Of a DNA stretch of 64,000 bases, positions 1,727-59,897 are shown piece after piece. This DNA comes from an uncultured virus (IMG/VR IMGVR_UViG_3300042731_005566) (taxonomy: Duplodnaviria > Heunggongvirae > Uroviricota > Caudoviricetes), in the IMG/VR virus record IMGVR_UViG_3300042731_005566, one strand, 5' to 3'. Under the pieces are notes generated by a model that ran no database searches, was not told where the DNA came from, and saw nothing but the letters and a program-made list of their open reading frames with translations. Both the position numbers and the translations under genes were made by a program. The stretch's first letter is position 1. Each line of letters starts with the position of its first letter.

Positions 1727-4700
1727 ATGGCCACGCAACTGAAGAACATCATCGCGTTTACGGCAGTCGGAGCCGGCGCACAGCAAACTGTCGCTCATGG
1801 TCTCAACATTGACGGTCGAGGGGTCACCCCCGACAAGCTGGAGTTCGACAACGGCGACTTCAGTTTTATCGCAGCCGACGCGACGAATGTGACAGTGCAA
1901 AACGATGGCGCAGGCGTTGCGAACTGCAATGTCATGTGTGAGCACTGGCTTACGGTCGAACGCACGTTCGGACCTGTTAGCATCACGTCACTTACACCAC
2001 AACCGTTCATCGTTGCAGGGTCTGGCGGCGGCGGCAGCAACGTAGCTGACTGGCTCGGTACAACGGGTGCGGATGTCAACGTTGGCAACGCAGCACCGCC
2101 CGTCGCTGGCCAGGTGCTCAAGGCGACAAATCCAACAACCGCAACCTGGCAAGCCGATAGCGGTGTGTCGAACCCGCTCATCCTCCAGACCGGCAACGGC
2201 ACGGTCACAGCGCCCAATGCTTACGCGTCAGGCGCAATCGGACATGGCATCGACGGCGACGTGGGCACTGCCGATGTCCAGGTTGATCCTACCGCAGCCG
2301 GGCTCGCGATTGGTTGGACGGACTCTTATACGGGCGGGACGGCGAGAGTCAAAGCTGGTGGTTTCGGTGGTGGTGGTGGTGGTGCATTCGCTCATGGATT
2401 CGCGACGCTTGGCGGGGCGTTCACTGCACTGATTGAAGCCGGGCATTCCGGATCGACTGCCTTCGGTTACGCGGATGGCAGTGGCGCAAACGCGTCGATT
2501 CGATCACGGGGGCGAGGTTCACAGGCTTTTGGTTGGGTGAGTGGAGGAACCGATGCTGCATACATCTACGCCGATGGCAGCGGATCATTCGCGGGCGGCT
2601 TTGCTTACGGCGCGTACGGTGCGCTGACACGCATTCGTGCGCAAGTCAGCGGATCGATGGCCTTCGGCAAAGTGTTCGGAGGTTCTGTTCGCACGAGTCT
2701 CAATGGCGCTCTCGCTGTGGGCTGCGGCAACAACCAGGGTGACGTACATGCGAGCGGTCTCGGTGCTGTTGCGCTCGGCTACGGCACTTACGGAGGTCTT
2801 GTCGAGGCATCTGCCAGCGGATCTGGGGCGGCTGGTCACGCATATGGCGCGACTGGTACTGTGCAGGCGTCTGGCGCAGGTGGTTGGGCATTCGGATACG
2901 CCTATGAAGGCGGTGTCTATGCGCTGGGTAGCGGATCATTCGCAGGTGGCTACGCCAAAGGTGTGGGCAGTGCCGTTCTTGCTACTCTTCGCGGCTCGGC
3001 TGCGTTCGGCGGTGCGTACGGTGGAGGAACCGTTGAATCGATCGATGCCGGTACGCTGGCCTCTGGCTACGCCTACTCCGGCGGTCTGATTCAGGCGGAT
3101 GGGCGTGGATCCCAGGCAATGGGTCTGGCTCAGAACAACGGTGACATCCTCACGAACGCCTACGGCGCGATGGCACGTGGTTTCTGTGACGGCAACAACT
3201 CACAGATCACGGCGGCGGATCGTGGTGCGTTCGCGTCGGGTACCGCGTTGACGGATGGAGATCTTCTGGTTTTCGGCTACGGCTCACACGGTGTCGGCGA
3301 TGTTCGTGACGGAGCCAAGATCGGTACAGCCGCTGCTAGCCATGGCTGCTTCGCTGGTGGCTATGCGAGCGATGGAGCATCGCTCATCTACTCGCGAGAA
3401 GGTGGCTGTTTCGCCTTCGGTCGAGCGCAGTTCGAGGGCGACATCACTGCACGTGGTGTAGGTGGCTTCGCGCTTGGGGCTGCGAACGGTACTGCGACTT
3501 ACGGCCACGCCAAGATCTACACGAACGCAACAGGCGGTCTCGCGCAAGGCTACGTACGCGACACCCAGCCTCTAGGCGTGCAGTTTTCACAGATCCTTTG
3601 CTACGGCAAGGGAGCGTTCTCCGCTGGTTACGTTAACCAGCGTGGTACGATCTCAGCGAGTGGTGGTGGAGCGCATGCAGGTGGCTACGCGTCATCAGCT
3701 GCTATCTATGCAGGCGGTGAAGTACCTGCAAGCATCGAAGCCAGCGCACTTGGCGCGTTTGCGCATGGATTTTCCAAGCGTCCAGTGACTGCTGGTGTAA
3801 CTTCTTACATGCGTGCGAGTGCAGCGGGAGCCTGGGCCGGTGGTTACGCGATAGGATATCTTTCCACGAGTGCTATTGAAGCTCAGAGTAAAGGGTCCCT
3901 TGCGCATGGTTACGCCCTCTCAGGTACTATCTACGCTAGCGCGCAAGGCGCTTTCGCGTCCGGGTTCAGCTCACTCAACGGAAGTATCGACGCAAGTGGT
4001 TATGGCGCGCTCGCCGGTGGGAGCGCGTTAGCAGCGGGGATCAACAACGCCAACATACAGGCGCAAGGCGTTGGCGCGTTTGCATTCGGCACTGCTGCTA
4101 CTGGATACCCTACTGTCGGTTACGAGAGCCGCCTTCGTGCCTACGGAAACGGATCTTGGGCGGGTGGCGATGCGATTGCTACCACCTATGGAATAGCAAC
4201 CTCGCGAATTCAGGCGCTTGATCACGGTGCTCTCGCACATGGCTACAACGTAGATAGCTACATCGAGGCGCAGTCGAAAGGTTCACAAGCGTTCGGCTTC
4301 GCGGACAGTGCTGGCTACATCTATTCGTCAGCGTATGGTGCGTTTGCGTCTGGCCACGCAAAAGACTCTGCATACATTTATGCGTCTGGCAAGGGCGCAC
4401 GTGCTCACGGGTACGGAAAGGGCGGGCTTGCTACAGCACGGATTGGAGCGAGTGGGGGAGGTGCATTCGCGTTCGGATACGTGACTGCTCTCGAAAGCGC
4501 GGCAGGAATTTTTGCAACTAGTCGCGGCACATTCGCTGGCGGTAGCGTGCAAGGAACCTACAACATCACCGCATCCTCATCCGGGGCGTTCGCGTTTGGT
4601 CGGGCCGACACAGGCAACATTCAAGCAACGGCTTCTAACGCTGTGCAGTTCGGTGTCGGTGTCAACAGTGCCTCGAACACGATGCAGATTGGCAGTGCGG

Positions 4701-10050: not shown

Positions 10051-10260
10051 ATGAGCAAAGCCGAGCCGAAGACCTGGAAGGAGCTGAAGGCGCAGGGCGT
10101 ACAGCGTTGCTGCGCAACGTTTACGGGAGGCAGGCAGTGTCGGCGTAGGGCTGTCGCCAACGGTTTCTGCCGGAAGCACCAGTGGGTCCACAAGACCGCG
10201 CACGACCTGAACAAGGCGGCGCTCGACTCCCTTGCGCTCGACGATGAAGAGGACAAGTGA
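10051..10260 (+). CDS. Small Cys/His protein (DUF5763-like zinc-binding pattern)
   Basis: RCCATFTGGRQCRRRAVANGFCRKH; GAGGAG RBS. Confidence 0.6.
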   Translation: MSKAEPKTWKELKAQGVQRCCATFTGGRQCRRRAVANGFCRKHQWVHKTAHDLNKAALDSLALDDEEDK

Positions 10261-10427
10261 TGAAGACCAGGAACAGGATCGAGCTGGAGGCACTGTCCAC
10301 GGCCCTCACTCAGTACATCGAGAACACCGCAGAGGACGAACTCGGTCACAACGACCAAGAGGAGCTACAGGCAATCAGATCCATGCTCGAACGGGTCAAC
10401 CTCGAACTCGTGAGAGTTTGGTGCTGA
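10260..10427 (+). CDS. Small hypothetical protein (55 aa; not in supplied ORF track)
   Basis: TGATG overlap with the previous gene; MKTRNRIELEALSTALTQYIE...VWC. Confidence 0.5.
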   Translation: MKTRNRIELEALSTALTQYIENTAEDELGHNDQEELQAIRSMLERVNLELVRVWC

Positions 10428-10442
10428 AGAAGATAATAAACG

Positions 10443-10649
10443 ATGCCACGGCAACACTGCGATAGCACCTGCTGGCACTGCGCAAGGCACTTCTTCGCCT
10501 GGCTGCGTGACCGCAATCGGCGCCCCAAGGACGGCCGGAGCGGCCCAGGCGACTTCTACGTCGAGGCTATCGCGAGCCGGCGCATCGCCGAGCTGGCTGA
10601 TGAGGCGGCTGCACTGGAGATTTTCGAGCGTCAGAGCAGTGTGCGATAA
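10443..10649 (+). CDS. Hypothetical protein
   Basis: 68-aa ORF in the co-oriented block. Confidence 0.5.
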   Translation: MPRQHCDSTCWHCARHFFAWLRDRNRRPKDGRSGPGDFYVEAIASRRIAELADEAAALEIFERQSSVR

Positions 10650-10679
10650 CAAGCGGCCCCGAGGGGCGATGGAGGAAAC

Positions 10680-11780
10680 TTGTCCAAGTATCTCATTCCC
10701 GTGTTGAACTACACACAAGCAGCCGCCGCGGTGGCCGCTGCCCTTCGCGCGAGGCGAACCGCACTGCTGCTAGGTTCGCCAGGCGTTGGCAAAACGGCCC
10801 TCGTGCGTGATGCTGCGGCCGCCATTGGGTTGCCTTGCCACGATCTGATCGCGTCCAACATGGACCCGACAGACGTCGCGGGGCTGCCATACCGCGATCT
10901 ACAGTCGGGTCGGGTGCTGCGCGAGCTGTTTCCCGAGATTCGGGCCGTCGTGGACGCTGCGGGTGTCTTATTCATCGACGAGGCGACCGCGATGCCGAAA
11001 TCGGTCGAGGGCCCGATGCTACGTGTTGCGATGGAACGCAACGCAGGCGGCACGCCGTTGCACCCGGGCAGCCCCGTAGTACTCGCGTGCAACCCGCCGG
11101 AACAGGCACCGGGCGGCATCGAGCTGTCGGCGGCATTCATCAACCGGATCGTGCTGCTTCGCTATCAGCCCTCATTCGCGGAAGTGCAGTCCTACTTCAA
11201 CGGTGAGGCGGTTCACGCTTCTCCCGTAGTGCTCGACGAGGACGCCTTCCAGGCCGCATGCGTTGCGGAGTTCGCTGACTTCGCCGCGACGCTTTCCCAC
11301 GCTACTGATCTGCTCGTTTATGATCCGCCGCGTGCAAGCGTTGATCAGGGCGAGCCGTGGGCATCCCCTCGCGGCTGGGAGATCGGCCTCTCCTGCCTGG
11401 CAGCGCATGGCGGTAAAGAGGATGACGTTGGCTACGCGCTCCTGACAGGTGCCGTAGGACCGTCCGCTGCTGGCGCGTACCTGGCAATTCGCAAGCTCCG
11501 TCTGCACCTGCCATCCATCGATGAGATCGCGGCCAACCCAACCAAGGCACGGCTGCCCGAATCGCTCGATCAGCAGATCGCTGCCCTGGGTCTCCTGGCC
11601 CGAGTCGCGCAGACCGATGTCTGGGCCGCGTGGACCTACGCGGGCCGGCTGCGGAAAGAGATTGGAGCTGCCTGCGGACGGTTCCTAATGAACAAGGTGC
11701 CGCAGGCCTCTAAGTTCGCCACCGTCGGGCGCAAAGCCCAAATCCAACTGCTGGCAAGAGTGCAGCGTGGGGCAGCATGA
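10680..11780 (+). CDS. MoxR-like AAA+ ATPase
   Basis: Walker A GSPGVGKT, DPTDVAGLP, Walker B LFIDE, ACN sensor and SPRGWE; GGAGG RBS with TTG start. Confidence 0.85.
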   Translation: MSKYLIPVLNYTQAAAAVAAALRARRTALLLGSPGVGKTALVRDAAAAIGLPCHDLIASNMDPTDVAGLPYRDLQSGRVLRELFPEIRAVVDAAGVLFIDEATAMPKSVEGPMLRVAMERNAGGTPLHPGSPVVLACNPPEQAPGGIELSAAFINRIVLLRYQPSFAEVQSYFNGEAVHASPVVLDEDAFQAACVAEFADFAATLSHATDLLVYDPPRASVDQGEPWASPRGWEIGLSCLAAHGGKEDDVGYALLTGAVGPSAAGAYLAIRKLRLHLPSIDEIAANPTKARLPESLDQQIAALGLLARVAQTDVWAAWTYAGRLRKEIGAACGRFLMNKVPQASKFATVGRKAQIQLLARVQRGAA

Positions 11781-16338: not shown

Positions 16339-16659
16339 ATGTTCGAGAAAGACTTCGACGCGCTGAACTGGAATGACAACGACTGGCCAACGATCTTCTA
16401 CGAGATCGCTGAGGCTGTCGATGACGTCACAGCCAAAGACGTCCGTGATGCTGTTCTCGCGGCGTTCACTGCTTGTCCAGACAACGTATCACCGGAACAG
16501 CGGCGCCAGGCTTATCGAAGCCTGCTACGCTACATCGTCGAAGACTACGCAAAGGTTGCCGGCGTAGATGCGGACCTGGCGTGTGATGCCCTCGTAGGTG
16601 CTGCACAGGCCAGCGAACCAATCAAACAAGAAGTGATTCGGCGACGAGTCATTACGTAA
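16339..16659 (+). CDS. Small acidic hypothetical protein
   Basis: GAGG RBS; immediately follows the effector-like gene. Confidence 0.6.
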   Translation: MFEKDFDALNWNDNDWPTIFYEIAEAVDDVTAKDVRDAVLAAFTACPDNVSPEQRRQAYRSLLRYIVEDYAKVAGVDADLACDALVGAAQASEPIKQEVIRRRVIT

Positions 16660-17569: not shown

Positions 17570-18555
17570 CTGATTCACCAAAGCTGGCTGCGGACTCCGG
17601 TGACGTAGACTCCAACGACCCCGAAGTCGTGCTTGTCGATGGACGTAAACTCACGTTCGAGAACCTGACACCACGTCAGTCTTGGGCAGCTTTGGCACGG
17701 GTTCATCTACAACAAGCCAATTTCCAGCGACGTAACTACGCTGGCTTCGAGCTAGCGGGACTCGACTTACGACACTCAAACTTGGCCGCGTGCGACTTCG
17801 CAGGTGCGAATCTTAGTGCCGTGAATCTAGACAACGCAAATCTCGACAGCGCGCTTTTCGTCAGCGCGAAAATGCAGGCCGCTGAGTTGGGTACGACGAA
17901 TCTCCCTGACACCGACTTCAGCAGCGCGGATCTACGTGGTGCAACATTCATTAACTGCAACGCGTTCGGTGCAATATTCGACAAGGCCAAGCTACGCAAG
18001 GCGAAATTCACGCATAAGTCACGTTTCGCCTTCACGTCGTTTGAGTATGCGGATCTGCGTTACGCGGAGCTGAACGAAGTCGATTTCTCCGGTGCGTGCT
18101 TGGACAACGCAGACCTGAGTCATGCAGTAATCAAGGAAGCAGACTTCACCGGCGCCTCACTGTGTGGCGCCAAGCTGCACCACACAGTACTGGGGAATGC
18201 AATCTTCGCGAATGCAGACCTCTCCAACGTAGACTTCGACTTTCTTTCACGCCTGTCGGTTGGTGCGTACTCCGACTTCACTGGGATGAAACTCAACGGC
18301 GCGCGAAACGTCCCCGAGGATTTTCATCAATGGGGGGTGCTGAACGAGTTGCAGCCGCTACTTCGACGTGTACCCCAGCCGCTACTTCGCACTAGCGAGG
18401 TTGGTCTCGATCACGTAACGACAGGCTTACGCAAGCTGTGGCTCGACCGTGCTGTCAGCGGCGTGGATTTCTTGCTCGAACCCTTAGATGAGCTGATGGA
18501 CGCAGCTTACGCGATAGCGATTGCAATCGCGCCGAAGAATAAATCCAGGTTCTAA
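17566..18555 (+). CDS. Pentapeptide-repeat protein
   Basis: Long run of A(D/N)LxxAxF/L five-residue repeats (e.g. AGANLSAVNLDNANLDSALF). Confidence 0.9.
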   Translation: MTDSPKLAADSGDVDSNDPEVVLVDGRKLTFENLTPRQSWAALARVHLQQANFQRRNYAGFELAGLDLRHSNLAACDFAGANLSAVNLDNANLDSALFVSAKMQAAELGTTNLPDTDFSSADLRGATFINCNAFGAIFDKAKLRKAKFTHKSRFAFTSFEYADLRYAELNEVDFSGACLDNADLSHAVIKEADFTGASLCGAKLHHTVLGNAIFANADLSNVDFDFLSRLSVGAYSDFTGMKLNGARNVPEDFHQWGVLNELQPLLRRVPQPLLRTSEVGLDHVTTGLRKLWLDRAVSGVDFLLEPLDELMDAAYAIAIAIAPKNKSRF

Positions 18556-41648: not shown

Positions 41649-42731
41649 ATGGCTAAGCTACCACCAGATTGGCACCGCCGAAGTTTCGCGCAGAAGCTCT
41701 CGTTCGTCGCGTGTGCCATGCGGCATGGTCCGCGACCGTCAGCGAGCCACCGCGAGTGGCTCTACGATCTCGCCAAGGATCAAGCGAAGCTTCGCCTCAT
41801 CTTGGATGCTGGTAAACGGTTCCAGAACGGCCCGCTGCTCGCCACTGTCAAAGGCAGCGAGATGGACAGTTGGGACGTGGCTGTCAGCGAGGCAGCTGTG
41901 CGCTACCACGCGCACGAGCGTTGGGCAGACTACGGCTGCCAGACGTTTCAGGTCGGCGAGTCCCTTGCTGCACTGCTCGCGCTCACGGACGCGACCGTGG
42001 GCTACGACGCCATTGAGTGGCCGTTTCCGGCGTTCCTACTAGAAGTGCCCGCAGGCTATCTACCGGTGCTCGATCTGCCAGCATATCGTGAGCGCCCCGT
42101 ACGCATCCTCGTGCACGACCACCTGCGAGCACAAGGTTACGGACCTGATCATGACGTACCCGAGGAGCGGTGGCTTCACATCGAGGCGTTCTTTGGGGAC
42201 CACACACTTGCTAGTTGCGCCATCAACAAACGGGTAGAAGACCTGGCCGACGGCATCGCCAAAGATCTGCTCAAGACCTACGGCGACGGCTACTCACCAG
42301 AGTTGGTCGAGGTGCGTAACGGTGGCAAATCGCAGCAAGTCATGGAAGCGATCCTCAGCTTCGTATGTGGCTTCGCGCTCTGGTTCACTAGTACGGGAGG
42401 CACTGAGCATCGAACGCCAACCTCCAAGCTGAACAAGCGCAAGGTGAAGAAAACCAAGATTGGTTGGCCCACAGTATGGATCGTCGGACGCTCTGTGAAG
42501 CTCGACCGCGCGTTGCGAGAGGCTGCAAAAGAAGCAGCGTTGACTGCGCGTACCCGTAGTGGGTGGCGCTTGAAAAAGCAACAGTTGGTCAGCGGGCACT
42601 GGAAGCAACAGCCCCACGGTCCCGGCCGCAAACTGCGAAAACTGATCCACGTCGCGCCCTATCTACGGGGTCCTGACGGCGATGAAGCGTGGACTCGCGT
42701 CTACAAAGCAACGAAGGAAGACGAATCATGA
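41649..42731 (+). CDS. Phage protein with conserved C-terminal GHW motif
   Basis: VSGHWKQQPHGPGRKLRKLIHVAPYLRGP, a motif recurrent in phage hypotheticals. Confidence 0.7.
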   Translation: MAKLPPDWHRRSFAQKLSFVACAMRHGPRPSASHREWLYDLAKDQAKLRLILDAGKRFQNGPLLATVKGSEMDSWDVAVSEAAVRYHAHERWADYGCQTFQVGESLAALLALTDATVGYDAIEWPFPAFLLEVPAGYLPVLDLPAYRERPVRILVHDHLRAQGYGPDHDVPEERWLHIEAFFGDHTLASCAINKRVEDLADGIAKDLLKTYGDGYSPELVEVRNGGKSQQVMEAILSFVCGFALWFTSTGGTEHRTPTSKLNKRKVKKTKIGWPTVWIVGRSVKLDRALREAAKEAALTARTRSGWRLKKQQLVSGHWKQQPHGPGRKLRKLIHVAPYLRGPDGDEAWTRVYKATKEDES

Positions 42732-43005
42732 AACGCTGCGGCGTCTGCAAGAACTGCGTAGAGCTGGCGAAGGTGCAACGGTCGGTGCTGCGTGTTGTGA
42801 ACCCGCCCTTCTCACACGCCGACGATGACGCTGTGAGGCTCTGGAACGCCGAGCTGGAGAAGCTGCCGTGCCTCAAGGAGACTGAGCGATTCGAGCACTC
42901 CGGGCGAGCCCATTAAGCGGTAAGTATTCAACGGGTTACGCTGGTGAATAACACAGCAGCACACCGCGTCGAACACGAAAGGCCCCGAGGGGCACTGGGA
43001 AAGCT

Positions 43006-43239
43006 ATGAAAACGGTCATCGACTACACCACCTGCTGCGATGACTGTCTGTGCAGCTACCTGCGTATCCACACTCCCGAGCAGCGGTTCACGCATCCGAA
43101 ACCCTTCTACTGCCTCCACCCGAAGTTCGAGCACGAGAACAAGAAGGTGACCCAAGAGGACAAGCCATTCTCCCAGCGACCCGACTGGTGCCCTCTTGCT
43201 GAAGAATCAGTACTCATTACAGTGAAGCCGAAAGACTAA
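43006..43239 (+). CDS. Small Cys-rich protein
   Basis: CCDDC...C...RPDWCPL; follows the hairpin element. Confidence 0.6.
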   Translation: MKTVIDYTTCCDDCLCSYLRIHTPEQRFTHPKPFYCLHPKFEHENKKVTQEDKPFSQRPDWCPLAEESVLITVKPKD

Positions 43240-54405: not shown

Positions 54406-54675
54406 ATGAACAACAACAAGCTGAGACCAACTGTCGAGGACGCTCACGCCGCTTCCAGGTGGGGATTTGCTAACACATTCACTGCTCGCTCGGTCGCCTT
54501 AGCGGTAGCGCAACGGCTCGGCCCCGATGACCGTGAAGGCGCTTGGTGGTACGCAAAGGTTCGGGTGTGTGCGCGAAATGCCCTTGAAGAGTGGCTACGT
54601 GAAAAAGTAATCGAGGCGGCCCCCCGATCAGGACAACCGACCGAATATCGATTCGTGAAGAAGGAGAGAACATGA
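54406..54675 (+). CDS. Small winged-helix-like hypothetical protein
   Basis: GAGGAG RBS within the hairpin variant. Confidence 0.5.
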   Translation: MNNNKLRPTVEDAHAASRWGFANTFTARSVALAVAQRLGPDDREGAWWYAKVRVCARNALEEWLREKVIEAAPRSGQPTEYRFVKKERT

Positions 54676-55496
54676 GGGCAATCGTATTGGCTGAGATCAA
54701 CAGTGACGGCACGCAAGGTGAGGTGCACACCTGCCGCGGCAGTGTGATCAAGATTGGAAAAATGAAACGCTCGGGGTTGAAGCTCAACCATCCTTCAGTC
54801 AGTCGGATGCACGCGGTGTTCGAGTGCGAGCCTGGAGGCATTGTCCACCTAGTCGATCTGGGTAGCGTGCAAGGTACGTTCATCAACGAGAAGCAGATCA
54901 ACAAAGCAGCCGTCAAAGTCGGCGACACGGTTCGTTTTGGTGACGTGATGCTCGCGGTTCGTGAGATTACGGACGAGGATGACACAGATGAAGCTGAAGC
55001 TGAAGCTGAAGCTGAAGCTGAAGCTGAAGCTGAAGCTGAAGCTGGTACCGCAGATGCAGCCTCTACAGGGCTCAGCGATCTCGCGGCCCGTATTGATCGG
55101 CTCAAACGTATCCGCAACATATACAGTGCAGGAGCTGCGCAGAGCAGCGCCGAGGTACCGAGCATAGGAAAGCTGGCCAGTACTGCCATCGTCCACAGCG
55201 TACTCGACGCCAACGCGCCAAAACAAATCGCTGACGTGATCAACGATGTCTGTGACAACGTTGCCGAGCTGCGCAAAATCGCGTCCGCTGACCGTGTTAC
55301 GCAAGCGCTGGACGGTCTCATCCAAGACTGGGCGCCTGTGTTGCAGGTCATCGGTAAGTACAGGGAGGCGAACGTCGAACGTACTGCGTTGTTCCGTGCC
55401 GGCTTGATCAAGAAGCTCAAGGACGAATTCGATCTGAGCGAGGCCAACGCAGTGGAGATCGTTCAATCAGCGTCGGAAACGTCCAACCTGACTTGA
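54672..55496 (+). CDS. FHA domain protein
   Basis: IKIGK...HPSVSRMHA...LVDLGSVQGTFIN...VGDTVRFG; (EA)9 linker. Confidence 0.85.
   Translation: MRAIVLAEINSDGTQGEVHTCRGSVIKIGKMKRSGLKLNHPSVSRMHAVFECEPGGIVHLVDLGSVQGTFINEKQINKAAVKVGDTVRFGDVMLAVREITDEDDTDEAEAEAEAEAEAEAEAEAGTADAASTGLSDLAARIDRLKRIRNIYSAGAAQSSAEVPSIGKLASTAIVHSVLDANAPKQIADVINDVCDNVAELRKIASADRVTQALDGLIQDWAPVLQVIGKYREANVERTALFRAGLIKKLKDEFDLSEANAVEIVQSASETSNLT
54990..55043 (+). repeat. (GAAGCT)9 microsatellite
   Basis: Nine perfect hexamer units, in frame. Confidence 0.95.
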
Positions 55497-55541
55497 GGAG
55501 AGATAGCGAAGACGCTATCGATGAGGAGGAGGAAAACGCTG

Positions 55542-55850
55542 ATGACAGATGATCCCGCACACGAATACACGGTTCCTGGCGGTGCTGCGGCAGCCCTCTC
55601 GACAATGCGCCCTGAGATGGCCCGTATCGTGGCCACACAGCTTCGTGAGGGCATCCTGCAACCGCTGTCGCCAGAAGAGCAAGCTGGCCTTCTCGACCTG
55701 GTAGCTGACCTCATTCAGCGTGTCAGCGATGACCAGGATCAACTCCGCGATATTCTACTCACGGTGCGTGGAATCCGCGAATACGGTAAAGGCCTACAAG
55801 GCATGTCGGAGAAGATCATTGCAGCTCTAGCTGCTTGCAACGTTGGTTGA
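55542..55850 (+). CDS. Hypothetical helical protein directly upstream of the cas12-like gene
   Basis: GAGGAGG RBS. Confidence 0.55.
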   Translation: MTDDPAHEYTVPGGAAAALSTMRPEMARIVATQLREGILQPLSPEEQAGLLDLVADLIQRVSDDQDQLRDILLTVRGIREYGKGLQGMSEKIIAALAACNVG

Positions 55851-55884
55851 ATGGGGCTCCGAGGAGCCAAGCAAAGGAGCATGT

Positions 55885-57468
55885 ATGCCAGCACGCGTTT
55901 ACAAGTATGGAGCCCGCCCTAGCCAAGATCCGAACTTGCTCAGGCAGATGAGGCTAGGCCGTCAGTACTACAACGCGCTCGTTGAAGCGGAGAACAAGCG
56001 GCGCCAAATCGGATGGGGCGGCGAATCTCCGCCACCACCACCGCACCGAGGTAGATGTCAGTGCGAGAAGTGCCAAGATGCATGGGCGAAGACGTCGCCT
56101 CCCCACGAGAAGTACGACTGCGACTGCGCTGAGTGCGAAAAGCACCGCGAGGCGCACCCGGCAGAGCACGACAACTGTAAGTGTGCGGCTTGCCGCGCGC
56201 ACTGGAATGCAGTGTGGGCAGCTACCCGTGCTATACCGCTACTCGACGTTCGTCCATTACGAACTACATGGGCGGCGAAAGGACTCTACTGGGGAACCTA
56301 CAACGTGATCGAACAGGCCTTCTCGGCAGCCTGGCAACACACGTCTCTGCTCCGCCCGGTGAAATTCCGGTCGTGGCGCAAAGGAGACGTCGCGGCCGTC
56401 CAAATTCAACCCGGAAGAGATCCTCATCGGTACGTACAGACTCACAAAGCGCCAGACGCACGGACAGGAAGACGTACACGTAACGGACTTGGACGGCACA
56501 CGGTAGAAATTAGGATCGGCAGCAATGGGGCTACACCCATTTTCTGCACCCCGATCCGCATAGAAAAGCACCGCGAGCTGTCTGGACAAATCACACATGT
56601 CCATGTGCGGCGGCGTTACAATGCCGATCAGCAGGTTTGGTCGGTCGCGTTCACTTGCAAGGATGCTGACCCAAGGACGGACGCGGCCGAGGAAGGCGTC
56701 GTTGCGGTAGACGTCAGCTGGCGCAAGATGCCTGACGGCTCCTGGCGATTGGGCTACGCGCGTGATGCGGCCGGTCACGTGAGTGAGCTACGCATGCCAG
56801 TCAGTTGGACGGCACGCGCTGACCGTGCGGAGAAGATCCACTCACACCGTGACAAGCGCCTCAACGAAGTACGGGCGTGCTGGCCTGTAGTCGGTAAGAC
56901 GAAATCCTGCCAAAAGGCTGTACGAAGACTACGTAGTCTAGGAGTACTCACCGCGGATCAAGACGCGTGGGTTGCACGCGAAATGCATCTCTGGCGGTAT
57001 GAGTGCGGTTGCTGGCGGCGTAGCCGAACCGGACGTCGCGCAGCGCTGCGTGAATGGGTGCGTGAGCTACGCTGTCAATACGCGGCTGTCATCGTCAAGA
57101 ATACAGGGCACAAGAAGATCAAGGAGGAACACGGGCTGCCTCAGAAGGCTCAACGGCAAGGACAACATGCGGCACCAGGAGAAACAGTGGAGGTGCTACG
57201 GGAAGTGTTTGGCGCCGATGGAATGCGGATCGTAGAAGCGAAGCACACGAGTGCGCGTTGCCCCGATTGTGGCACAATCACTCCCGTGAACGGACAACGC
57301 ATGCTTCGTTGCGAGGGGTGTGGTACGCAACGAGACTGCGACGACATAAGCACCCGAAACATGTGGGCCCTCTACCAAGCCGGCAAATGGAAAAAACCTA
57401 CCGCTCGAAAAACGACCTCCAGGTTCGCGAAACGGCACAAGAAAAACGAGGTGCCCCCGGAATGCTAG
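55885..57468 (+). CDS. Compact type V CRISPR effector (Cas12m / V-U1-like, TnpB-derived RuvC protein), 527 aa
   Basis: VYKYG...RQMRLGRQYYNALVE N-terminus, GLYWGTYN, RuvC-I VAVDVSWR, AAPGE, TSARCPDCG...CEGCG zinc finger, RuvC-III RDCDDISTRNM; adjacent CRISPR array; AAAGGAG RBS. Confidence 0.8.
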   Translation: MPARVYKYGARPSQDPNLLRQMRLGRQYYNALVEAENKRRQIGWGGESPPPPPHRGRCQCEKCQDAWAKTSPPHEKYDCDCAECEKHREAHPAEHDNCKCAACRAHWNAVWAATRAIPLLDVRPLRTTWAAKGLYWGTYNVIEQAFSAAWQHTSLLRPVKFRSWRKGDVAAVQIQPGRDPHRYVQTHKAPDARTGRRTRNGLGRHTVEIRIGSNGATPIFCTPIRIEKHRELSGQITHVHVRRRYNADQQVWSVAFTCKDADPRTDAAEEGVVAVDVSWRKMPDGSWRLGYARDAAGHVSELRMPVSWTARADRAEKIHSHRDKRLNEVRACWPVVGKTKSCQKAVRRLRSLGVLTADQDAWVAREMHLWRYECGCWRRSRTGRRAALREWVRELRCQYAAVIVKNTGHKKIKEEHGLPQKAQRQGQHAAPGETVEVLREVFGADGMRIVEAKHTSARCPDCGTITPVNGQRMLRCEGCGTQRDCDDISTRNMWALYQAGKWKKPTARKTTSRFAKRHKKNEVPPEC

Positions 57469-57856
57469 CTCGATGGCTACTCAATCGAGACAGTCGGGTG
57501 TGCGTTTCAAACCACTGGCGCAGCCGCCCCGGAATGCCAGCTCGATGACTACTCAATCGAGACAGCTCGCGTGCAATTGCCGCGGCCAAAGCTTTCTGCC
57601 ACCCGAAATGCTAGCTCGATGGCTACTCAATCGAGACGCGTAGCGGAAGCCAGTTCGCTCCTCGGGGTGCTCCCCGGAATGCTAGCTCGATGGCTACTCA
57701 ATCGAGACCGTATCGAGCCGAGCCCGAAGGCGTTCGCGCCCCAGACCCGGAATGCTAGCTCGATGGCTACCCAATCGAGACTACAAAACGGGGCCAGCGG
57801 TGTTTTTCCGTGGCCGGCCCCCCGGAATGCTAGCTCGATGGCTATTCAATCAAGAC
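57456..57856 (+). CRISPR. CRISPR array, regular part: 6 repeats of 36 bp and 5 spacers
   Basis: Consensus CCCGGAATGCTAGCTCGATGGCTACTCAATCGAGAC at 57456, 57528, 57602, 57673, 57746 and 57821; unique spacers of 36, 38, 35, 37 and 39 nt; internal CTCGAT/ATCGAG hairpin. Confidence 0.95.
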
Positions 57857-57888
57857 GCCACGCCAGGATGTAGACACGGAGGACTGAA

Positions 57889-58221
57889 ATGGGAATGAAA
57901 CCGAGACCGAAGAAAAGAACGGATCCACAGGTCCGTGAAACGTTGGTGTCTGCCGCCGACCGATTGATCGAGACTCTGGAAGACCTCCTACAACCATATG
58001 AGCGGGAAAAGGCGGAGGTGGTGATCAATGTGGCTCGGGAGGCTATTTACGAGTTGCAGTACGCCAATCCGAACACCGAGATCGTACTCAAAAGCGTGCT
58101 ACAGGCGTACCTGACGCCGGACGTCGGTATCTACCATTCCGGGTACGAAGCCGCCTTCACGAAGAAGTACGCCAAACTCGAAAAGATCATCAAGAAGGTC
58201 GTCGAGGCGACTGGCATGTAG
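57889..58221 (+). CDS. 110-aa hypothetical protein embedded in the CRISPR array
   Basis: GGAGG RBS; intact ORF with GC3 bias; repeats on both sides. Confidence 0.7.
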   Translation: MGMKPRPKKRTDPQVRETLVSAADRLIETLEDLLQPYEREKAEVVINVAREAIYELQYANPNTEIVLKSVLQAYLTPDVGIYHSGYEAAFTKKYAKLEKIIKKVVEATGM

Positions 58222-58229
58222 CAGCTTGA

Positions 58230-58263
58230 ATGCTTCCTTGTCGGTCAGGGGAGCATCCCTTTT
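58230..58263 (+). terminator. Putative intrinsic terminator after the embedded gene
   Basis: ATGCTTCCTTG-TCGGT-CAGGGGAGCAT stem (with G-U pairs) followed by CCCTTTT. Confidence 0.5.
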
Positions 58264-58823
58264 CAATCGAGACTTGAGCACCAAGGGCGACGACAATCAT
58301 GCTAGCTCGATGGCTATTCAATCGAGACTTGAGCACCAAGGGCGACGACAACCATGCTAGCTCGATGACTATTCAATCGAGACCTCGGCCCCGCAACCAA
58401 CGAAGACCCGGAATGCTAGCTCGATGACTACTCAATCGAGACGTCGGATTTGGGATCGAGGCTACCCAATCGAGACAGCCTAGCTCGTCTTTCGACGCGT
58501 CGAGATCGAACCCAGAATGCTAGCTCGATGGCTACCCAATCGAGACGCGAGCGACAACCTGGCGCGCGGTCTCAAAGTCGCGACCCGGAATGCTAGCTCG
58601 AAGATGATGAATCCGATGCAATTGAATCAGCCATGATCCGTGCTGGACTCATTTGGAAATGTGTCGAGTGCGGCTACAACAACGAACCAGACTACACTGC
58701 GTGCGATAACTGTGACAGAGAACGCGAGGACGGGTGTCCCGGAATGCTAGCTCGATGGCTACCCAATCGAGACGCCGTAGATCAACACCAGGTGGTCCCA
58801 GAATGCTGGCTCGATGGCTAGAC
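58262..58823 (+). CRISPR. CRISPR array, degenerate distal part
   Basis: Half repeat 58262-58273; 5'-truncated repeats 58299-58328 and 58354-58383; full repeats 58407-58442, 58511-58546 and 58738-58773; partial repeats ~58456-58476, 58584-58601 and 58797-58823. Confidence 0.85.
58602..58737 (+). pseudogene. RanBP2-type zinc-finger coding fragment inserted in the array
   Basis: WKCVECGYNNEPDYTACDNC fits W-x-C-x2-C-x3-N-x6-C-x2-C; bounded by a half repeat and a full repeat. Confidence 0.6.
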
Positions 58824-58866
58824 GTGTCCGGGTCCGGCAGAAAACAAGAAAGAGGAGTTTAGTGAC

Positions 58867-59106
58867 GTGGACAGCGACGATCCGATCGTGGTGCGTGTGA
58901 AGAAGGCACGGTGGGAAACACTCGGGCTCGACATGCCTCGGGATACCTACAGTGTCATGGCGATTGAGCTACCGAGCGGTCGCCGCCTTGTAGCTATTGT
59001 TCCTTCTGGCATTGACGAAGCAGACGCCAGGTTTGCTGAACAGGAGCTGCGCAGCCTGGCCGATGTGATCGCTGGATTTTTTGGTCCTGCATCGACGAAT
59101 TCATAG
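58867..59106 (+). CDS. Hypothetical protein
   Basis: GAGGAG RBS after the end of the array. Confidence 0.55.
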   Translation: MDSDDPIVVRVKKARWETLGLDMPRDTYSVMAIELPSGRRLVAIVPSGIDEADARFAEQELRSLADVIAGFFGPASTNS

Positions 59107-59149
59107 CGCGTTTTTTTGGGTACTTCACGATGGTGGTATGGCACGCTAA

Positions 59150-59165
59150 AATCGCGTCCGCGATC
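59150..59165. promoter_or_regulatory. Operator-like palindrome (copy 5, inverted) AATCGCGTCCGCGATC
   Basis: Reverse complement GATCGCGGACGCGATT is 15/16 identical to copies 1 and 2; intergenic, upstream of the HTH gene. Confidence 0.55.
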
Positions 59166-59282
59166 ATCGACGTGAAGCTTGCACGCAGCATCAATTCTAG
59201 GTAAAAACGAGGTAGGACGCGTCCCTGTACTACTGCTCTCAACTCCTCGACGCGTGGGGAGCAAACCGAAAGACGAGAACGA

Positions 59283-59897
59283 ATGCCAGTTCCTCCCGTG
59301 AAGTCCACCGCGGCGTGGCTGTCAGCTCATGATGCTGCAAAGCTGCTCGACGTAACCCCTGACTACATCGCGAAGTTGGGGCGCTCAAAGCGTATCCGCA
59401 GCAAACGGCTCGGGCCGAACCGCAACGCTTACTCCAAAGCTGATGTTGCGAAGTTCGCCGCTCAGCGAAAGCCACGCAAGAAGCCACGCAAGAGGTCACG
59501 CAAGCCTGGATCGAACGGTGCCGCCGGCAAGCCTGGATCGAATGGTGCCATTGACACAGACCGGTGGGTTGACGTGGCTGAAGCTGCGCGGATCACAGGC
59601 CTGACCAAAGGCGGTGTGAACTGGGCTGCTAAGCAGGGGCGCATTCCTACCGTCAACATGGACGGCCACCCGAGGCGTTATCTCTACTCGGCTGACGCCT
59701 GCGAAAACTACAAGCGCACGAACAACGGACCCAAAGCGCAAACGTCGAAGTCAGACCCTGCCACGCGGATGGCACCGAAGCGCGCGCAGACTGCCATCCA
59801 GAAAGCACGCTGGGTGTTCGATGGAATCGCGATGGGTGCTATTACCTCTGAGAGCGAAGCTCTAGAACTTCTTCGCGGCATTCTCTACGAAGACTGA
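59283..59897 (+). CDS. DNA-binding protein with two excisionase/MerR-like HTH domains
   Basis: WLSAHDAAKLLDVTPDYIAKL and WVDVAEAARITGLTKGGVNWAAKQGRIP. Confidence 0.75.
   Translation: MPVPPVKSTAAWLSAHDAAKLLDVTPDYIAKLGRSKRIRSKRLGPNRNAYSKADVAKFAAQRKPRKKPRKRSRKPGSNGAAGKPGSNGAIDTDRWVDVAEAARITGLTKGGVNWAAKQGRIPTVNMDGHPRRYLYSADACENYKRTNNGPKAQTSKSDPATRMAPKRAQTAIQKARWVFDGIAMGAITSESEALELLRGILYED

Follow-up and report, generated by a model that had tools for sequence, protein, structure and literature searches.

A probable small gene in a spacer position of a phage-borne Cas12m-like CRISPR array

A stretch of 64,000 nt from the uncultured Caudoviricetes record IMGVR_UViG_3300042731_005566 (hereafter the window) carries a gene for a Cas12m-like effector, followed directly by a CRISPR array. 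One spacer position of this array is occupied by an open reading frame (ORF) of 110 codons, termed ORF110 here, which lies between the regular part of the array and an older, rearranged part. The full IMG/VR record from which it comes measures 146,941 bp, and its completeness is estimated at 94%. On balance, and with restrained confidence, we take ORF110 to be an ordinary phage gene that was set among the repeats by recombination and is co-transcribed with the array. The features on which this reading depends are the following.

55885..57468, plus strand: Cas12m-like effector gene, 527 aa from its ATG (541 aa if translation began at the TTG at 55843)
57456..57856, plus strand: regular CRISPR array, repeats 1-6 (36 nt) with five spacers of 36, 38, 35, 37 and 39 nt
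57821..57856, plus strand: repeat 6, directly before ORF110, with one stem pair broken by a G to A change, CAATCAAGAC
57857..57888, plus strand: ORF110 leader, 32 nt, with the Shine-Dalgarno (SD) sequence GGAGGA at 57878-57883, 5 nt before the ATG, read directly from the sequence
57889..58221, plus strand: ORF110, a 110-aa orphan protein starting from the ATG at 57889
58230..58263, plus strand: hairpin of 11 bp with a 5-nt loop, starting 9 nt past the stop codon and followed by CCC and TTTT (58260-58263)
58262..58273, plus strand: 3' repeat remnant TTCAATCGAGAC, the last 12 nt of the repeat without the 5' arm of its stem

Between repeat 6 and the 12-nt remnant lie 405 nt of non-repeat DNA (57857-58261), and the layout of a gene with its own ribosome-binding site inside the array, as put forward in the initial annotation of this DNA, is present as described. 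That annotation had proposed that sequencing reads be used to look for a misassembly. The arrangement is physically real and no misassembly was found, because single contigs from two sequencing runs bridge both junctions without a difference. The ORF110 stretch is contained in 15 public runs, and the Logan contigs of four of these (X1, X2, X3 and X5) were examined. Runs X1 and X2 each hold one 540-nt contig that spans 57752-58291 with 0 differences, running from repeat 5 through spacer 5 and repeat 6 across all of the insert and the remnant to a further 18 nt. The left junction and most of the insert are also bridged by a contig from X3 (57819-58241) together with two from X5 (57774-58072 and 58045-58268), and no alternative joints or variant letters were reported among the contigs of the four runs. 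These runs are not fully independent, since they may share one sampling campaign and may include the source sample. A twin IMG/VR record of 150,001 bp is 100% identical to the window phage across 12 kb around ORF110, and scans of viral contigs with ORF110, the effector and the exact repeat as queries returned nothing beyond this twin.

Judged on its sequence, ORF110 is probably a real small phage gene. The SD is strong and well spaced, and the G+C content by codon position (0.57/0.33/0.71) resembles that of neighbouring genes, with a third-position value typical of coding DNA. Searches of 5.8 billion clustered proteins and of 1.84 billion cluster representatives (of about 15 billion) returned a sole true homologue, P0002, which is also 110 aa long and matches at 88 of 107 positions (82% identity; 97 of 107 similar) with mostly conservative changes and no gaps. 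Together, these observations bear out an intact coding gene of 110 codons with a ribosome-binding site. Four further candidate relatives, P0003-P0006, were rejected as repeat proteins (LRR/InlB-type, TPR and low complexity) whose scores are sums of short, weak matches. The protein has an isoelectric point of 7.9 and a basic N-terminal tail with six Lys or Arg residues among its first 20. No family match was found in Pfam, PHROGs, NCBIfam or PADLOC, a profile search of the PDB gave nothing below an E-value of 0.04, and the protein Atlas held nothing above 0.83. Neither a second copy of the 405-nt insert nor a paralogue of ORF110 was found in the phage.

It could instead be held that ORF110 is not a gene, and is either a chance open frame in a long insert or the product of an assembly chimera. 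The homologue count of one would fit such a view, as would the low confidence of the predicted fold: the AlphaFold2 model, with helices at residues 13-33, 39-58, 63-75 and 85-107, has a predicted local distance difference test (pLDDT) score of 58.6, and the Atlas's own model scores 0.50. However, a chance frame would not be expected to recur at equal length, at 82% identity and gap-free in P0002, nor to combine a well-spaced SD with a coding-type codon pattern, while a chimera is contradicted by the contigs of X1 and X2 and by the identical second record. We regard this explanation as largely refuted and very improbable.

The hairpin that follows the stop codon had been described as a terminator with a T-run, possibly remodelled from a repeat whose GAATGCT heptamer it shares. 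The hairpin itself is well supported: its G+C-rich stem pairs 58230-58240 with 58246-58256, including two G-U pairs, at -15.7 kcal/mol (z -3.04), a value equalled by one of 200 shuffled sequences. Its standing as a terminator is weaker. A scan of 55500-59400 for stems followed by at least five T within 8 nt, beginning 0-2 nt past the stem, called four sites where 3.7 were expected, and the hairpin is not one of them because just four T follow it, after CCC. It is thus possibly a weak terminator or a stabiliser of the 3' end. The heptamer is present at 58228-58234 as described, but its derivation from a remodelled repeat is not shown, since the local match to the repeat was equalled by 143 of 500 shuffles. 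Another reading of the remnant, in which GGCATGTAGCAGCTTGA...ATCGAGAC is a whole but diverged repeat with an enlarged loop, was also considered. The predicted outer helix is compatible with it, and it would place the ORF110 stop codon on the repeat TAG, like that of the effector; it is not claimed here because the alignment is no better than that of shuffled sequences.

The repeat carries a 3' hairpin beside the spacer, and the pairing is supported by covariation, with compensatory changes at all six pairs among 12 related phage repeats. An array of this geometry begins at 57456, adjacent to the effector gene, as is expected of Cas12m. The six stem pairs of the CRISPR RNA (crRNA) are intact in 10 of the 11 full-length or 5'-truncated copies in the window, the exception being repeat 6, which keeps five of six and whose lowest-energy fold shifts to a different structure. 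Past ORF110 and the remnant, the repeats continue in a less orderly manner.

58259..58368, plus strand: tandem-duplicated unit of 55 nt (25-nt spacer and 30-nt 5'-truncated repeat), 95% identity
58299..58821, plus strand: irregular distal repeat field with spacers of 25, 23, 17, 34, 37 and 23 nt
58299-58328, 58354-58383, 58407-58442, 58511-58546 and 58738-58773, plus strand: full or near-full distal repeats
58460-58476 (3' half) and 58584-58601 and 58797-58821 (5' parts), plus strand: partial distal repeats
58602..58737, plus strand: insert 2, 136 nt of non-repeat sequence, preceded by a 5' half repeat and followed by a full repeat
58633..58821, plus strand: 62-aa ORF, in which insert 2 encodes a zinc ribbon (CxxC...CxxC) and the C-terminal 27 aa derive from repeat and spacer sequence

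This distal field had been thought to be silenced by the hairpin and in decay. Its short spacers, its half repeats and the 55-nt duplication make it irregular, but all five of the full or near-full distal repeats retain six of six stem pairs, which argues against a silenced, decaying array. The intact scaffold would instead suggest that the field is still used or that its rearrangement is recent. The 55-nt duplication looks like a scar from slippage or from unequal recombination, this being an array that lacks adaptation genes. The first 35 aa of the 62-aa ORF form a complete zinc ribbon (Zn_ribbon_RanBP, 6.2e-06) that, at 25.8 bits, does not reach the Pfam cut-off of 27, and this ORF may be a gene stump or a mini-protein. 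No further copy of the 136-nt insert was found in the phage genome.

The effector that accompanies the array is, from its sequence, of the Cas12m kind with a non-canonical RuvC site. When searched as a single sequence, it shows only a zinc-ribbon domain of the TnpB/Cas12f type (Pfam Cas12f1-like_TNB, 7.2e-06). A profile of its 23-member family (A1) matches the solved Cas12m structure 23vw in the PDB with an E-value of 1.7e-37 over profile positions 7-466 of 492, and also Cas12m2 (8hio, 2.1e-21) and 8pm4 (9.3e-15), while PADLOC calls the protein Cas12u1 (1.1e-35). The label Cas12m-like, given in the initial annotation, therefore holds. Another relative of the effector is P0008 (76%). A profile scan of 185,579 species genomes returned no relative, and the family was seen on viral and metagenomic contigs. 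A 2026 preprint claims the first phage Cas12m (10.64898/2026.09.14.751636). Within the family, the RuvC-I Asp (D276) and the RuvC-III Asp (D486) are invariant, and the position of the RuvC-II Glu is held by a Lys in 23 of 23 members (K405; K405-N406 is encoded at 57094-57102 of the window); the residue that follows is Asp, Asn, Lys, Thr or Ala among the family and is N406 in the window protein. This D..K..D triad is non-canonical and falls outside the Cas12m types HEK/HQK, HDD, DED/NED and DND that are listed in a published study (PMC10442227).

The effector gene ends inside repeat 1 (overlap at 57456-57468), where its TAG stop codon falls, and the array therefore lacks a separate leader. The C-termini of many family effectors (..PPEC, ..DNASSMA, ..NASATA and ..ECQLNGL) are the repeat translated in differing frames, and thus the array begins inside the effector gene family-wide. 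A parallel is found in tnpB, the 3' end of which is overlapped by its guide RNA. Neither Cas1 nor Cas2 was found in the phage genome (each 0 of 1, with positive controls that worked).

Under the recombination account favoured above, the effector gene, the array, ORF110 and the genes downstream would be carried on one rightward transcript. Expression of ORF110 from the array transcript is plausible because effector, array and ORF110 share one strand, and every larger ORF between 51.9 and 61 kb lies on the plus strand. Cleavage of pre-crRNA by Cas12m2 has been placed upstream of the repeat scaffold (PMC10442227). By analogy, the phage Cas12m would cleave the transcript at the intact repeats 1-5, so that the RNA 3' of the last intact repeat would bear ORF110 together with its own SD. 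Because the stem of repeat 6 is broken, the leader that follows it would probably not be held by the effector and would be open to ribosomes. The hairpin past the stop codon may shield the 3' end or dampen read-through, and would do so without ending transcription, since the repeats beyond it still look selected. A promoter inside the repeat, as in the type II-C model, was considered and is unlikely, because a transcript that started there would lack the 5' handle; the promoter scan found none. In origin, ORF110 would have been placed by recombination at repeats with no involvement of adaptation genes, and the same process would have left the half repeats, the 55-nt duplication, a lone repeat 72 kb away and the bracketed genes of a related phage, to which we now turn.

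The effector profile identified 16 further viral loci, an array being visible in 13 of the fetched stretches and absent from those of L009, L010 and L015. Eleven arrays were analysed, L008 and L014 having been set aside because L007 and L013 have the same repeat and layout. In 10 of the 11 there is no gene inside the array; a 785-nt gap in the array of L020 was examined as a possible gene slot and rejected, as it holds degenerate repeats and repeat-derived frames only. The exception is L007, from record G001, a 43-kb phage whose effector is 39% identical and whose repeat occurs at several sites on both strands. The G001 contig ends overlap by about 160 nt, and the record is therefore probably circular or terminally redundant. 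Five records were searched whole for lone repeats (the window phage, G001, G002, G003 and G004), and these were found in three: one in the window phage, several in G001 and four in the 245-kb G004, which encodes a distant Cas12m-like protein (25% identity) and has its lone repeats far from its array. None occurs in the complete 81.5-kb G002, with its 21-repeat array (the one weak match there is of 33 nt, 79%, E 0.014), or in the 13-kb fragment G003. A metagenome scan with an over-degenerate repeat pattern returned 81 loci with one match each, none of which encodes ORF110 or the effector. The repeat sites are listed below.

Window phage, same strand as the array and 72 kb downstream of it (G000 C1, about 16513-16548; L103, 3013-3048, minus strand): lone repeat
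G001 (C1), 42585-43135 minus strand, 10241-11172 plus strand, 2635-2670 minus strand and 18356-18391 plus strand: repeat sites
G004 (C1), 241870-241911 (plus strand), 118668-118703, 122821-122854 and 84036-84067 (minus strand): lone repeats

In G001, a VRR-NUC-like gene of 160 aa fills a 498-nt slot in a decayed repeat field upstream of the effector; 2 nt separate the preceding repeat from its start, and 13 nt separate its end from the repeat beyond. An ASCH-like gene of 120 aa occupies a slot of 404 nt in a second mini-array, with 20 nt that include an SD between the preceding repeat and its start, and 21 nt between its end and the following repeat. The order of repeat, SD, gene and repeat described for ORF110 is thus seen again. 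Two further G001 genes begin 20 and 48 nt after repeats.

These arrangements invite an explanation in which the repeat does more than mark sites of recombination. The repeat may be an mRNA leader or a form of operon punctuation, at which Cas12m cuts polycistronic phage RNA and binds the handle, and so fixes where the message of the next gene begins, how stable it is or how it is translated; the bracketed genes may move as cassettes by recombination between repeats. Such coupling would account for four G001 genes that start 2, 20, 20 and 48 nt past a same-strand repeat, three of them with an SD and two of them bracketed, and for the three G001 copies off the main array, which have 0 mismatches to the array repeat. 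It would also suit G004, where ORFs start at +41 (175 aa, with an SD) and +27 (62 aa) after the two of its four lone repeats that are matched over their full length, the former repeat having a terminator-like hairpin immediately upstream. The presence of lone repeats in three of the five whole-searched records and the intact stems of all distal repeats in the window point in the same direction. However, something will follow any repeat, genes are densely packed in phage genomes and the numbers are low, and the complete G002, despite 21 repeats in its array, has no lone repeat. The lone repeat of the window phage likewise precedes no gene on its own strand. This full-length copy has one mismatch to the consensus and matches the copy at 58738 exactly. 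A 56-aa ORF ends 41 nt before it, and it extends into the 3' end of a convergent gene with an RF-1 domain (peptide release factor or peptidyl-tRNA hydrolase), the last ~12 residues of which are encoded by the opposite strand of the repeat. This repeat had surfaced first as loose ends of Logan contigs. Further, repeat 6, which precedes ORF110, is the sole copy with a broken stem, and ORF110 is for this reason the weakest case for binding by the effector. We consider functional coupling a possible, and rather unlikely, explanation.

An extended form of this idea, which we offer as still more doubtful, is that the repeat of Cas12m phages has been co-opted as a portable RNA element before ordinary genes. 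Cas12m would cut operon transcripts at the element and hold the handle. Either this would determine the 5' end, the stability or the translation of the gene, or the first ~20 nt of the gene would become a guide directed at its counterpart in related phages that compete with the carrier. The carrier would not target its own copy, since the repeat there replaces the protospacer-adjacent motif. Bracketed genes, among them ORF110 and the VRR-NUC-like and ASCH-like genes of G001, would be cassettes that recombination could carry from one repeat site to another, and the array would double as an integron-like landing pad.

The recombination account has its own difficulties, and several observations weigh against it. 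The tight fit of complete genes in repeat-bounded slots of two phages, and the perfect conservation of the outlying repeats at three G001 sites, may imply that the repeat has a function. Only a single homologue of ORF110 was obtained. A sigma-70 scan, the consensus of which may not be that of the host, found no promoter near the locus. Lastly, ORF110 contains a short stretch that recombination leaves unexplained.

58131..58143, plus strand: anti-repeat-like stretch of 13 nt within ORF110, of which 12 of 13 are complementary to the 5'-terminal 13 nt of the repeat (CCCGGAATGCTAG)

A complementarity of 12 of 13 was equalled in four of 1000 codon-shuffled ORFs and was noticed post hoc; it could be chance.

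The initial annotation had further viewed ORF110 as cargo expressed from the pre-crRNA, which might act as an anti-CRISPR, as an accessory factor or as a toxin or addiction gene released by repeat processing. Considered more broadly as CRISPR-specific cargo, it could also be a regulator by which the phage controls its own Cas12m, or a toxin that the effector restrains in an addiction of the CreTA/CrePA kind. Its place among the repeats and beside the effector lends itself to this view, and its product, like many anti-CRISPRs, is a small orphan protein. Degenerate repeat units with short spacers also lie directly after ORF110, much as creA units lie beside creP or creT (10.1101/2024.01.05.574328; 10.1101/2023.03.03.530964). 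In the CreTA/CrePA systems the criterion is a spacer with partial complementarity to the promoter of the small gene; none was found for ORF110 at the locus or in the phage genome. The spacers tested (13-15) were compared by seeds of at least 12 nt, by 5' prefixes and by full-length matches with up to one mismatch in six. No seed of at least 12 nt and no full-length match was found in the ORF110 leader, in 54.0-60.5 kb or in the rest of the phage genome, where the longest 5' prefixes found elsewhere are of 9-11 nt, the level of chance, and none of 50,697 phage records contains a spacer match. Neither a protein family nor a defence library matches ORF110, and the slot genes of the related phage (VRR-NUC-like and ASCH-like) are unrelated to it, so the slot selects no single function. 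In sum, nothing was found that links the function of the ORF110 protein to CRISPR; the proposals of an accessory, anti-CRISPR or toxin role are unsupported by these searches, and a CRISPR-specific role appears improbable.

The remainder of the neighbourhood can be described briefly. A search of 55500-59400 against Rfam returned no family. The nearest gene for a helix-turn-helix protein (59283-59897; HTH_17, 8.1e-11) lies ~1 kb downstream of ORF110, past the repeat field and the first gene beyond it. Upstream of the effector, a GAAGCT-based tandem repeat (54974-55051) encodes an (EA)n run within the gene for an FHA-domain protein (54672-55496).

58867..59106, plus strand: ORF79, first gene past the repeat field, 79 aa, with a GTG start and GAGGAG upstream; no family in searches of Pfam and other libraries

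When set beside known systems, the locus most resembles Type V-M, represented by MmCas12m2 and its relatives (PDB 23vw, 8hio, 8hhl and 8pm4). Common to both are an effector of compact size that derives from TnpB and departs from the canonical RuvC site, repeats of 36 nt with the 3' hairpin beside the spacer, and a lack of adaptation genes in the element. Unlike Type V-M, the proteins of the window family are shorter (471-531 aa vs 577-614), were found only on viral or metagenomic contigs and have an invariant RuvC-II Lys; additionally, repeat 1 here overlaps the effector stop codon and the array contains a whole gene. The lone repeats recall the solitary repeats known as RNA anti-CRISPRs (Racrs), which are single repeats or mini-arrays that stand outside a normal array in viral genomes, mimic host repeats and are not associated with cas genes (PMC10651486). 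In contrast to Racrs, the lone repeats here match the array of the phage's own effector and share the strand of the protein genes that they directly precede or separate, and no partial complementarity to a promoter was found. The recombinogenic nature of repeats is said to favour standalone repeat-like elements of CRISPR-cas loci (10.1101/2023.03.03.530964). As in CreTA/CrePA (10.1101/2024.01.05.574328), a small gene stands beside degenerate repeats in a CRISPR-cas locus and repression by binding is possible; they differ in that the spacer-promoter match was sought here and not found, and in that ORF110 resides in a phage rather than beside a host effector operon.

The locus can also be compared with mobile elements and modular phage cassettes. 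Certain Tn7-like transposons reportedly target CRISPR repeats, and here too, as with insertion sequences and Tn7-like elements, foreign DNA interrupts an array at a repeat. Unlike such insertions, the 405-nt insert holds ORF110 only, with no transposase and no target-site duplication. Terminal inverted repeats were not found in the insert, the only inverted pairs being those of repeat 6 with an internal site and of two internal sites with one another. In T4-type phages, promoter-early stem-loops mediate the modular shuffling of genes. These cassettes are similar in that small orphan genes are bracketed by short, conserved and structured repeats in a phage genome, yet the T4 repeats are promoter and stem-loop units without an RNA-guided protein partner.

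CRISPR arrays are normally thought to contain short spacers only. Here, an array carried by a virus, with an effector that is predicted to be a binder and not a cutter, has one of its spacer positions occupied by a whole and apparently functional gene, and a related phage has the same layout with other genes, its repeat being scattered ahead of further ones. Searches of the open full-text literature found no account of one protein-coding gene occupying a spacer slot, although this is not proof of absence. If the effector does act on messages led by a repeat, it would be a natural Cas protein that punctuates or regulates mRNAs, a use that to our knowledge has so far only been engineered, and phages would have a simple route by which to shuffle small genes. 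Even on the plainer reading of recombination at repeats, the locus indicates that arrays without adaptation genes evolve by recombination while retaining the structured part of the repeat.

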